A DNA stretch of 27,003 nt, from the IMG/VR virus record IMGVR_UViG_3300048911_000077, one strand, 5' to 3'. This document shows, one piece after another, positions 6,150 through 27,003 of this stretch. This DNA is from an uncultured virus (IMG/VR IMGVR_UViG_3300048911_000077). Its lineage: Duplodnaviria > Heunggongvirae > Uroviricota > Caudoviricetes. The first letter of the stretch is position 1, and the number at the start of each line of letters is the position of its first letter. The position numbers and the translations under genes were made by a program. Under the pieces are notes generated by a model. The model saw only the letters and a list, made by a program, of their open reading frames with translations. It did no database searches and was not told where the DNA came from.

Positions 6150-6301
6150 CTAAGCCCACAATGAACTGGAAGCTTGACGTAAGAACAAAAGACTATTATA
6201 ATGAATTAGTTTCTACAGGGTTAGCTTGGGAACTTTATCCTTCGATGCCTTTGAGCTGGGAAGAATGTTTGGAAGAATTGGAGGAGAGTGGGGATGTTTG
6301 A
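6146..6301 (+). CDS. small hypothetical protein (51 aa, MTKPTMNWKLDV...), not in the ORF track
   Basis: ATGA coupling to the upstream gene; overlaps the thyX start. Confidence 0.6.
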   Translation: MTKPTMNWKLDVRTKDYYNELVSTGLAWELYPSMPLSWEECLEELEESGDV

Positions 6302-18472: not shown

Positions 18473-19087
18473 GTGAAACTGAGAAAGAGAAACAAATTAC
18501 TTAGCGGCGTAGGTGTTAATGATGCAAACTACAATGTCTATGAATATGGTATTGTAGAAGGTAAAAGAAAGATGACTTGGATTTGTCCATTTTACAATAC
18601 ATGGGGTAGTATGTTAGTTAGATGTTACTGCCCTAAGTACCAAAAGCAATTCCCTACCTATGTAGGTTGCTCCGTTACGGAAGAGTGGCATCTGTTCTCT
18701 ACTTTTAAGGCTTGGATGGAGAAACAAAATTGGGAAGGTAAGCACCTGGACAAAGACATCTTGTTTAAAGGAAACAAGACTTATAACCCTGAAACTTGTG
18801 TATTTGTTGATCCGAGAATTAACACCTTTCTTCTAGAAAATGGTGCAGTACGCGGAGACTATCCTATCGGTGTGTGTTTTCATAAGAGGGATAAAAAATA
18901 CACAGCAAAGTGCTGTTCTGCGGAGTCTGGTAAACGAAAACACTTAGGCTATTTTGATACAGCCGAAGAAGCTCATCAAGCATGGTTAGCTTTCAAACTA
19001 GAGCAAGCCAAGATATTGGCATCTGAGCAGTCTGATGAAAGAATTGCCAAGGCTCTTATTGAACGCTATGAGAACTATACTTACTAA
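18473..19087 (+). CDS. free-standing HNH-like endonuclease with C-terminal AP2-like domain, antisense to the tail operon
   Basis: WGSMLVRCY...PTYVGCSV.EEW..FSTFKAW...LDKDIL..GNKTYNPETCVFV...IN; PIGV.FHKRDKKY.A...HLGYFDTAEEAHQAW. Confidence 0.8.
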   Translation: MKLRKRNKLLSGVGVNDANYNVYEYGIVEGKRKMTWICPFYNTWGSMLVRCYCPKYQKQFPTYVGCSVTEEWHLFSTFKAWMEKQNWEGKHLDKDILFKGNKTYNPETCVFVDPRINTFLLENGAVRGDYPIGVCFHKRDKKYTAKCCSAESGKRKHLGYFDTAEEAHQAWLAFKLEQAKILASEQSDERIAKALIERYENYTY

Positions 19088-24576: not shown

Positions 24577-25636
24577 TTATTGTTTCACTGGAAATTGAAC
24601 ATTTACTTGGTCAAAAGACTGAACAAACATATTTGCAACTGCCTCACCGATAGCTTGAGCTTGAGCAGTTGCATCCAAACCTTGAAGGGTTGATCCATCA
24701 ACATTAACTTCAATATTGATTTCATTACTATTGTTATTCACAATACCCATAGCCTTATCTTCAGCAGCAGCCTTTGCCATCTCAGCTTGTTGATCATCAT
24801 AACCAGCCGCATCGTGATAGTACAAAGAATTTGGATCTTCGTATACAGCCCTGCCGCGTTCCCTGGCCCTAGACATATTAACACCAGTGTTATTAATGAT
24901 GTCTCCAACAATTGCAGCAGGAGATGCGTACTCTAAACCAAATAAATTGGCTTTTTCTGTTGCGCTATTGTTTGTAGGCTCTGTAGGGAGCGTTCCACTC
25001 TTCCACTTTTGAAATTCAGCTATTGCATTCATAATAGAAGCAATTTCACGAGCGGTTGACTCTAAAGTTGGTAAGAAGTCAAATTTAATAGAAGATATGT
25101 CTGTAAATATTTGTTGGATATTTTTCCAATCTTCCTGTAGTTGCTTTGTTTTATCAATTCCCAGCCAATCAGCAACTACGCTATCTTTACCCTCTAAAGC
25201 CCTGATAAAAGATTGAGGAAAAAGAAGTAAATCATCAGCCCATTTAGTGGCTTCATTAAAGCCCTCGGCTAAAGTCCTGACCAACCCACCACTCTCACTC
25301 AAACCAGCATTAAGGGTACGGAAAATACGCGCAAAACCCTCCTCTACGCCTGAATTTGAAGCTAGTACAGCCATGTCGTTTACAGAGTTTTGGTAGCGGG
25401 CTTGTTCAGCCTGGGATGCTTGAGAGGCATTTGCCAACGCACCCCCTTGGTTTGCTCTTTGTGACGCAGCAGCGCCGGCATAAGTCAGGATATCACTAGT
25501 AACTTTACCTTTTTTCATATCAGCTAAAAGAGCCTGAATGGCGTCAGCACCAGTTTTGTTTCCTCCCAGCTTAGCTTGGTATGCTTGTGCGAAGAGTGCT
25601 GTACCTCCGGGGAGGGCTTCTGCGATTTGACCTGTA
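24577..25636 (-). CDS. tape measure protein, 3' exon
   Basis: The frame of ORF 24577..25518 stays open 39 codons upstream (TGQIAEALPGGTALFAQAY...ALLADMKKGKVTS), continuing the tape measure domain. Confidence 0.9.
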
Positions 25637-25710
25637 CTTTATATTCAAGCAGAGACGCTACTCTCTGCCCCGTTCTCAAGGAACTGCTATAACTCTCGCT
25701 ATAGAATAGA

Positions 25711-26115
25711 CTACATCTTGGTGTTTTGTAAATATTCGATTGCGTTGTGTAAGATATCAATTTGATCCTTTGCGTGACCAATGATTAAATTACAACTATT
25801 ACAAAGAAGACCCCTAACCTTGCCTGTTGCATGACAATGGTCAATATTTAATCCATAGTAGATATTTCTACCATTTCTGCAAATACTCTCGTGTTTACCA
25901 CAAATTTTGCAGCAGTCGTTTTGTATAAGTCTAAGATGATCATACTCAGCTTTTTCTATACCAACGAACTTTATTTTTGTTTTTAAAGCTAAACATTCAA
26001 AGCATATAGTGCTGTACTTTAAAGGATTATCTTCTTGGTAGTGGTCACGGTCTTTTCTTTTAAAGAACTTAATAATTTCCAGTTCTTCTTTGCAATACGT
26101 ACAAATTTTATACAA
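25711..26115 (-). CDS. intron-encoded Endonuclease VII-family (His-Me finger) homing endonuclease
   Basis: N-terminal CxxC...CxxC; QNDCCKIC...LNIDHCHATGKVRGLLCNSCNLIIG; lies in the P8 loop. Confidence 0.9.
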   Translation of the reverse strand: MYKICTYCKEELEIIKFFKRKDRDHYQEDNPLKYSTICFECLALKTKIKFVGIEKAEYDHLRLIQNDCCKICGKHESICRNGRNIYYGLNIDHCHATGKVRGLLCNSCNLIIGHAKDQIDILHNAIEYLQNTKM

Positions 26116-26267
26116 GTAACACCCCCCCTGTTTCGGCTACGCTTGTAGCCTACTCTACTCCGTTCCACATTAATGTGCCGTTTCGATAGTCGTTGAACGT
26201 TCCCTTTCGGGCTTCGCTGCTGATTTTCCAAAATAGTTGTTTTCAAACATTCACGCTTGAACCATAT

Positions 26268-26296
26268 ATTATACTTAGGTTCTACGTTGTAGTCAA
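26268..26296 (-). promoter_or_regulatory. intron-internal sigma70-like promoter upstream of the endonuclease ORF
   Basis: TTGACT(26296-26291)-17 nt-TATAAT(26273-26268). Confidence 0.6.
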
Positions 26297-26370
26297 CTAT
26301 TAATAAGGACTTTCCAGCAATTAAAGGGGTAAATTTTTCTGCATATTTCTATGCAGCGAGCCTAATATTA

Positions 26371-27003
26371 AGCTCTTCGCTCATGAGCTTACCTTTACCG
26401 GCTACTTGGGAGAGCGCCCTAAATAGCCTGTTTTGAGTCGTCTTGTCCAACTTATTGACTCGTGCCAACTCAGCAAATCCTGAGAAGACCTTCTGACTTT
26501 CTTTTAATCCAATACCAGAACCTGTTAGACCCGATATTAACTTATTATAGTCTCCAGAGGCATCGAGGAAATTGAAGCCTATTCGCTGTCCCTCAGACCT
26601 TAAATATTGAAAGGAATCAGAACCTTGCTGTGCTGTGCCACCAGCTTGTTGCACAACAGCAGAGGATTGTAATTGAGCAGAGACAACTTCTTGGTTACGT
26701 CTATTTAGGGCGCCAAGGCCATATCCGCCCAATCCCAATGCAAGTGCCGGACCAAATAGGTTAGGCATCCCGCGAAGACCTCCTACACTACCTGCAACAG
26801 CTCCGGCAGCAAGGCCCTGTCCTCCCGCACCAACACCCGGCCTTACATTCGGTCTGATAGTGGCAGCTTCACCAGCAACACGGGTTGCCTGAATTGTGGC
26901 AGCTGTCATTACTCTGTTAAGATGTTGCTGGTTGACATCAAAGCGGCTAATCTCAAACACTAACCTAGAGGAAGCCATGTCTAAGGCATTGCCCAGGGCT
27001 ATG
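26371..27003 (-). CDS. tape measure protein, 5' exon (partial, begins beyond the window)
   Basis: Frame open to the window edge; ends ...RALSQVAGKGKLMSEEL, the conserved tape-measure-domain motif. Confidence 0.9.

Follow-up and report, generated by a model that had tools for sequence, protein, structure and literature searches.

A putative sigma70-type promoter in the P5 arm of a phage group I intron whose P3 helix doubles as the Shine-Dalgarno sequence of an endonuclease gene

A group I intron in the tape-measure gene of an uncultured phage carries a putative host-type promoter inside its P5 arm, and the Shine-Dalgarno (SD) sequence of its endonuclease gene is the 3′ strand of the catalytic helix P3. 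We analysed a window of 27,003 nt, which is most of a 31-kb virus record, and the reading that we favor, at a probability of roughly 0.55, is that an inherited early promoter serves an endonuclease gene that has co-opted P3 as its SD and that is passively locked in splicing-competent RNA. The anatomy of the intron, the register of P3, its overlap with the SD and the conservation pattern of the promoter match are direct observations (Table 1). The ribozyme-embedded promoter with its probable early timing is the stronger half of the reading, and the P3 lock is a plausible co-option. Homing requires the nuclease during DNA replication, and an intron in a late gene is transcribed mostly afterwards. 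The T4 model explains only how a nuclease is delayed, and this locus together with its intron subfamily suggests the mirror solution, in which a host-type promoter is written into the ribozyme.

Table 1. Coordinates of the intron, its flanking exons and its regulatory features in the window
Feature	Position	Strand	Basis or remark
Exon 1 of the tape-measure gene, a late structural gene (portion within the window)	26371..27003	-	Pfam TMP_3, E 3.5e-9, below the curated cut-off; spliced frame open
Tape-measure gene exon 2	24577..25636	-	Internal transcript would read through exon 2
Group I intron, 734 nt	25637..26370	-	RF00028, E 4.2e-8, 38.6 bits (gathering score 50 not reached)
P1 (GAGCU/GGCUC) with splice-site wobble	26358..26375	-	Sequence and Rfam alignment
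P3 5′ strand CCCCUU, anti-SD element	26324..26329	-	Covariation; missing from internal transcript
P element / P4 5′ strand	26314..26320	-	Missing from internal transcript
-35 hexamer TTGACT	26291..26296	-	TTG ends the P5 stem; ACT in the conserved P5 module
-10 hexamer TATAAT	26268..26273	-	In the loop of a GAACC/GGUUC hairpin (26282-26259)
Predicted transcription start, ~26262	26260..26263	-	From spacing to the -10 box
P7 5′ strand GACUA	26187..26191	-	Pairs as GACUA/UAGUC
P3 3′ strand AGGGGG, the SD, 8 nt before UUG	26124..26129	-	Covariation; AGGAGG in relative L016
P8 5′ strand GGUGUU, SD-to-start spacer	26118..26123	-	Pairs with AACACC 25725-25720
EndoVII-family homing endonuclease ORF, 134 aa, UUG start, in P8 loop	25711..26115	-	PF02945, E 6.4e-19
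ORF 3′ end: P8 extension, P8 3′ strand, J8/7 and P7 3′ strand	25709..25730	-	Stop codon within P7

The source is presumably a Pseudomonas-type myovirus, because the closest named-phage match of its baseplate protein is Pseudomonas phage vB_PsaM_M1 (56%). At Rfam gathering thresholds nothing in the window matched, and the intron surfaced only in an E-value search. Its 5′ splice site lies after U26371, which forms a U·G pair in P1, and its omega-G is at 25637. In 40 of 50 tape-measure loci the exons are contiguous at exactly the codon that holds the intron, the junction matches, and removal of the intron restores the frame; the other 10 comprise 2 loci with an intron (L010 and L016) and 8 that are truncated or distant. 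The exon-1 frame terminates within P2 (stop at 26351-26349). Judged by its sequence, the element is a group I intron with a P3-P7 core and P, Q, R and S elements, and it is predicted to self-splice. None of the cultured phages among the matches listed has a close intron of the subfamily described below, the long matches being at about 72-78%.

The ORF in the P8 loop is intact, and its sequence matches in the PDB are Hpy99I and T4 EndoVII; it would encode an EndoVII-type homing endonuclease, predicted to cleave the intronless allele. An earlier note on this DNA had taken the UUG at 26115 as the start codon, which is plausible because the frame offers no alternative (ahead of codon 134, UUG is the sole in-frame ATG, GTG or TTG, and a stop lies 8 codons upstream) and because homologues at 78% and 55% also have a UUG start, just ahead of the first Cys pair. 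All three introns with an EndoVII gene in P8 retain the UUG. The last codons and the stop overlap the ribozyme core, a point absent from the earlier note. An alignment search with the endonuclease found 3 loci only in viral contigs and no match in metagenome contigs. An EndoVII of the same family sits in P8 of a terminase-like intron, with its UUG 5 nt past P3 (L139:1315-1707), and a more distant EndoVII-family ORF with its own SD and a UUG start follows the core of another intron (L201:900-1280). A truncated exon-2 protein starting at ATG 25518 was rejected as lacking an SD (-2.5 kcal/mol).

The promoter match reported earlier, TTGACT and TATAAT separated by 17 nt and agreeing with the sigma70 consensus at 11 of 12 positions, is present in the P5 extension as described. 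The transcription start had been put at about 26261; this position is a U and the nearest purines are G26263 and G26262, so a start near 26262 is more likely. When the 255-nt 5′ part of the intron was shuffled 3000 times with dinucleotides preserved, 0.1% of the shuffles contained an 11/12 site. Genome-wide, 2 such sites are present against an expectation of about 1.07 per 31 kb, the second being intergenic at 6174. The single match is therefore only suggestive by itself, and it is the comparative data that carry the promoter claim. Intergenic sigma70-like sites elsewhere in the window lie on the plus strand at 6174-6202, 10416 and 18408, the last of which precedes a lone plus-strand ORF (18473-19087) within the minus-strand structural block.

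For the comparison, we scanned for the P5 extension module, which is common to many phage introns, with search patterns that constrained neither the TTG nor the -10 hexamer. One scan listed at least 119 loci, with short flanks and hence incomplete ORF content in 39 of the 119, and further searches yielded mostly hits that were not introns; removal of duplicates and non-introns (by a P/Q motif filter) gave 101 introns among the matches listed. Fifteen of these have an AACC/GGUU hairpin and form the subfamily; the other 86, with the same P5 module and again among the matches listed, served as the comparison set. At the anchored position, 11 of the 15 subfamily introns reach at least 10/12, 2 have 8/12 and 2 have no fitting -10, while among the matches listed none of the 86 other introns reaches 9/12 there and just one has any 10/12 site in the region. 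The -35 bases T, T and G are found in 15/15, 12/15 and 10/15 subfamily introns, respectively, compared with 47/86, 24/86 and 8/86 of the others among the matches listed. Stem positions just upstream of the -35 are variable in the subfamily (commonest base 40-73%) with pairing kept, and the spacer is confined to 16-18 nt even as the loop that follows the -10 differs by 0-5 nt. Related introns mostly have a GNRA-type word at the position of the -10 loop; by a loose pattern it is present in 82 of the 86 other introns among the matches listed, and it is replaced in the subfamily. All 101 introns among the matches listed have the CT of the -35, and 81 of them have its A. L010, an intron of different structure that occupies the same site, has TTGATT-17-TATATT (9/12). 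This intron (L010:2830-3930, runs X6 and X19) shares the tape-measure site and the ends and has another P5 fold, an HNH ORF in P6 and a short P8. The subfamily forms a single lineage that includes several almost identical pairs (identity 0.67-0.98), so its 11 promoter-bearing introns are not independent. The conservation pattern looks like that of a selected promoter, and we consider it quite likely that the promoter is active.

The 15 subfamily introns differ in their ORFs: 3 have an ORF in P8, 7 have an ORF after the core (4 with a Pfam HNH hit), 3 have a promoter without an ORF, 1 has neither and 1 is truncated. Each of the seven post-core ORFs has its own separate SD. The three introns that retain the promoter without an ORF, L183, L232 and L241, reflect either recent loss of the ORF or a second use of the promoter, such as transcribing downstream tail genes; they are tail-sheath introns with promoters of 10-11/12, two of them with an extended -10. 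L139, with the same P8 arrangement as the window, has only a poor promoter match. Host genes across the subfamily are the tape measure and the tail sheath (two identified by DUF3383, the rest by resemblance) and, in our reading of the sequences, a terminase. Because the promoter is found both with post-core ORFs and without any ORF, it is, on this comparison, an inherited trait of the intron lineage, independent of the P8/P3 arrangement.

As to timing, the pattern TTGACN-N16-18-TANAVT has 39 hits in four related genomes versus 12 for a reversed control. In G001, which carries the same intron, promoter matches cluster in the small-ORF and replication regions, and inside the structural block (36-64 kb) the intron site is the only sense match of at least 9/12; two strong sigma70-type sites stand at the head of that block. 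A sigma70-type site is no proof of early timing, because such sites head the structural block and also dominate the promoters of PAK_P3, where 78.7% are reported to be sigma70-like (PMC10914365). Of the 14 occurrences of a T4-late-like motif, TATAAATA, in G001 and G003, four are followed at 14-50 nt by a long sense ORF (G001:54129 and 67790; G003:5949 and 10868), and three of these ORFs are structural by our reading. A similar late motif is reported for rV5 (PMC3606486), and TATAAATA, which was not found at the intron, weakly hints at a separate late-promoter class in this phage group.

The strongest timing evidence is by analogy and comes from ICP1, whose tape-measure gene is reported to have three introns spliced in vivo, one of them with an HNH ORF (PMC10448857). 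GenBank annotates a sigma70-like Porf80 inside this intron cluster, and we found 9/12 sites in the ORF-bearing intron. Data Set S1 of PMC7567579 gives, for the intron endonuclease ORF80 at 4 min, 6259/6855/10486 reads, compared with 83/80/172 for the upstream exon and 2025/2453/7168 for the downstream tape-measure exon. From these counts we compute a 70-fold excess of ORF80 over the upstream exon at 4 min, down to 1.6-fold at 16 min, and a 35-fold excess of the downstream over the upstream exon at 4 min; four further count sheets of the same source have the same ORF80 pattern. ORF80 was binned as late by the authors and is absent from the accessible main text (PMC7567579). The library appears to be unstranded and PAK_P3 makes early antisense RNA over its structural genes (PMC4933390), so the ICP1 early signal may come from antisense RNA; the sharp upstream edge and the downstream decay fit a sense start. 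The counts suggest an early start within the ICP1 intron cluster that has previously been unreported. The earlier proposal that an element in a late gene is expressed earlier thus stands by analogy with these counts, and early timing of endonuclease expression is, on that footing, probable. Reads of ORF78 are also raised in Data Set S1 (ORF79-ORF81 is L001:479-4282), and the ICP1 intron closest to the core of the window's intron (L001:1505-3300) has the same P5 module, with neither an ORF nor a promoter match there.

Turning to translation, the earlier note had read AGGGGGGG (26129-26122, 6 nt before UUG) as the SD and paired it in P3 with CCCCU (26329-26325). The location holds, and the SD is the 3′ strand of P3 because covariation fixes the register of that helix; the extent was overdrawn, as G26123 and G26122 begin P8, and covariation replaces the CCCCU register with CCCCUU (26329-26324) paired to AGGGGG (26129-26124). 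In this register, 98.7% of cells pair in 13 subfamily introns and 4 of the 6 pairs change on both sides, compared with 61-72% pairing in slid registers of the same introns; covariation rules out the Rfam and MFE register, which is slid by 2-3 nt. In the covariation test, related sequences inflate the shuffle control. The relatives have CCUCCU/AGGAGG (L016) and CUUCUC/GGGAAG (L010). L016 has a perfect AGGAGG SD with P3 pairing preserved by compensatory changes, and the SD of the window has a G·U wobble where L016 is perfect, with P3 pairing kept. With G·U counted, the anti-SD pairing of the window's SD (-11.6 kcal/mol) ties for the strongest among 21 starts tested in the window.

The P3 3′ strand is SD-like (-7.8 kcal/mol or stronger) in 8 of the 10 subfamily introns that have a short P8 without an ORF, and the median over all 59 short-P8 introns is -3.3 kcal/mol. 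On this comparison the G-rich P3 3′ strand is the ancestral state and would predate the P8 ORF. Because anti-SD pairing at P3 is strongest in the three P8-EndoVII introns (-10.7 to -11.0 kcal/mol), the data suggest that SD strength was tuned after capture of the EndoVII gene. Eleven long-P8 introns have a placeable start: 4 start 5-8 nt after P3 (the window, L016, L139 and L095), in 2 others a separate SD lies farther on and 5 are without a clear SD, the P3-SD introns having been sampled via scans built for other features. One 6-nt stretch would carry three constraints, namely P3 pairing, the SD and the spacing to UUG, and "core creep" would extend from ORF overlap to regulatory signals.

The P3 5′ strand lies upstream of the predicted internal start, and at the level of sequence only read-through RNA carries the occluder. 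An internal transcript had been expected to lack P1, P2 and the P3 5′ strand and to be unable to splice, which stands, although the list was incomplete in that the P4 5′ strand is missing too; that such a transcript cannot build the ribozyme core is supported. P3 belongs to the catalytic core and a ribosome cannot bind there in folded RNA, and by this anatomy folding and translation are mutually exclusive on one RNA molecule. We folded nascent RNA ending 35 nt after the start and compared the cost of opening the SD with versus without the P3 5′ strand. The cost is 5.9 versus 1.4 kcal/mol in the window, 1.5 versus 0.6 in L016 and 4.1 versus 2.0 in L139, a difference of 1-4.5 kcal/mol (0.9 in L016, 2.1 in L139). 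For full-length window RNA at 37 °C, the nested model gives 2.5 versus 2.3 kcal/mol. The predicted exposure of the SD in the internal transcript is therefore recovered as a modest gain in nascent RNA and vanishes in full-length RNA at 37 °C.

When the full pre-mRNA is folded as an ensemble with the nested model, P3 has a pair probability of 0.15; the model cannot represent the P3/P7 pseudoknot or tertiary contacts and so probably undervalues P3. The extended P8 of the earlier note is borne out, with UUGUA (26115-26111) pairing with UACAA (25730-25726), and P8 plus its extension has pair probabilities of 0.69-0.90 in pre-mRNA and 0.76-1.0 in internal RNA. Because both transcripts form it alike, P8 masks the UUG in each, and start-codon masking drops out as a differential part of a switch. 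The difference between transcripts is likely kinetic in this modelling, with a window of ~400 nt on internal RNA before P8 closes. Translational silencing by P3 in pre-mRNA is plausible from the folding, and whether the block is material is, in our judgment, evenly poised.

In the mechanism that we favor, an intron lineage in late structural genes of Pseudomonas-type myoviruses would carry a host sigma70-type promoter in its P5 arm, which would yield a 5′-truncated, splicing-dead RNA early, ahead of the structural operon, so that the endonuclease would be present during DNA replication and recombination. An EndoVII gene would have entered P8 directly behind P3, whose 3′ strand was G-rich beforehand and would have come to serve as the SD of the new gene, the start codon being a weak UUG. 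P3 would be partnerless on the internal RNA, where ribosomes would load while the ~400 nt ahead of the P8 3′ strand are being transcribed; on the late pre-mRNA, P3 would form once the SD emerges and would damp initiation. Ribosomes would thereby be kept out of P3, P8 and P7 on the pre-mRNA, and tape-measure mRNA could splice. If this is true, early transcription would, as a side effect, also run on past the intron into exon 2 and the tail genes that follow, as with the downstream exon of ICP1.

The promoter could be real and early and P3 still have no meaningful regulatory role, the SD overlap being a by-product of where the ORF landed, with UUG and P8 setting a low output on either transcript. 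We judge this unlikely. The SD-like P3 strands of 8 of 10 subfamily introns without a P8 ORF would fit it, as would the seven introns whose post-core ORF has a separate SD, the nearly equal opening costs in L016 and in full-length RNA, and the pairing of P3 at only 0.15 in the nested ensemble of the full pre-mRNA. However, that ensemble leaves out the P3/P7 pseudoknot and undervalues P3, and it is established that a core helix such as P3 bars the ribosome in folded RNA. The ORF end also overlaps P7, the arrangement in which early translation of I-TevI is reported to have impaired td splicing (PMC2988022).

At the other extreme, promoter position, P3 and P8 would have been jointly selected as a fully co-evolved splice-versus-translate switch, with only internal RNA translated. 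Although the three P8-EndoVII introns have the strongest P3 SD of the set and all keep UUG, and L016 maintains a perfect SD together with P3 pairing, we find such a switch improbable. The evolved promoter-plus-P3 switch of the earlier note finds no support in the comparison as it was put, since the promoter is older than, or unconnected with, the P8 ORF and stands mostly ahead of post-core ORFs with their own SD, the G-rich P3 is ancestral and P8 is not differential between transcripts; L139 has a P3 SD with a poor promoter match, and the window keeps P3 pairing with a G·U wobble in the SD where L016 is perfect. Most improbable to us is an accidental promoter match, produced by the AT-richness of an RNA loop together with a conserved P5 module of single ancestry, with the endonuclease made from pre-mRNA or a broken excised intron. 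An accident would accord with the roughly one 11/12 site expected per 31 kb, with a -35 CT in 101/101 introns and its A in 81/101 among the matches listed, and with retention of the motif by ORF-less introns. It would not accord with constraint in the subfamily falling only on promoter-relevant stem bases, with a spacer held at 16-18 nt despite loop-length variation and replacement of the GNRA-type word, or with the early intron-region RNA in the ICP1 counts.

Our best reading, by analogy, is that the working mode resembles T4 I-TevI control with the timing inverted and without a dedicated hairpin. As reported for T4 I-TevI (td), I-TevII (nrdD) and I-TevIII (nrdB), segB and Aeh1 mobE, there would be an intron-internal promoter, an SD masked by an RNA structure for which sequence upstream of that promoter's start is required, an ORF end that overlaps the core (P7), and a shared logic in which the core is spared from ribosomes and nuclease synthesis is matched to replication (PMC2988022, PMC3073962). 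The T4 host genes are early or middle and the promoters are phage middle or late promoters, whereas this intron sits in a late gene and its promoter is of the host sigma70 type, and the timing would thus be advanced rather than delayed. In T4 the SD is held by a dedicated hairpin in a loop, whereas here the lock would be the catalytic helix P3, with no dedicated hairpin outside the core. A homing-site-like operator over the promoter had a best match of 11/20, and 199 of 200 shuffles reached at least 11, so an autorepression operator was rejected as no better than shuffles. Three defining features of T4 I-TevI are accordingly lacking at this locus: the dedicated hairpin, the phage middle or late promoter in an early or middle gene, and the operator.

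ICP1 is similar in that its tape-measure gene holds group I introns whose P5 module is related, a sigma70-like promoter is annotated in the cluster and RNA over the endonuclease is early; it differs in that its HNH ORF has its own SD and lies before the P3 3′ strand (in the P6 loop by our reading) and in its insertion sites. The SPO1-type DNA polymerase intron is reported to have an ORF in the P8 loop whose end overlaps P8, as here (PMC3073962 Table 1), but the HNH ORF of SPO1L3 has its SD in the P8 loop, downstream of P3 and the P8 5′ strand by our reading, an AUG start and a replication host gene. In I-PfoP3I of Pf-WMP3 and in the PhiI/W31 introns, the ribosome-binding site lies in an intron stem, as here, and is thought to lower nuclease output; the Pf-WMP3 stem is the peripheral P6b, and the accessible text mentions no internal promoter (PMC3428280). 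Ribosome-binding sites inside intron stems and ORFs in P8 are thus already known (PMC3428280, PMC3073962). In the literature that we searched, we found neither P3 as the SD of a homing endonuclease nor an early promoter in a late-gene intron, and a term search of the accessible text of PMC11878797, PMC3984707 and PMC3706429 found nothing on either; the primary T4, SPO1, Bastille, Twort and PhiI papers may hold precedents.

A broader reading, which we offer tentatively and at somewhat less than even odds, is that this lineage turned a ribozyme arm into a portable early promoter, with the GNRA-type loop of P5b becoming the -10 box and the P5 stem the -35 box. The lineage would home while resident in late structural genes and would pick up unrelated endonucleases in P8 or P9, and those that invade P8 would use the catalytic P3 as SD, ribozyme folding would act as the translational repressor, and each RNA would either splice or make nuclease. 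Early intron-internal transcription would then be general in late-gene introns, overlooked so far and visible in the ICP1 counts.

A related strain is represented in run X4 (window 25640-27002), where the intron pieces are 98-100% identical to the window and the exon-1 piece is 92% identical, a contrast as expected after recent movement of the intron. Its endonuclease ORF has a one-base insertion. A 63-nt contig of RNA library X4 (depth 4) links the intron's 3′ terminus with its 5′ terminus (window 25640 to 26369) with three non-matching letters, and gives a weak hint of a circular excised intron.
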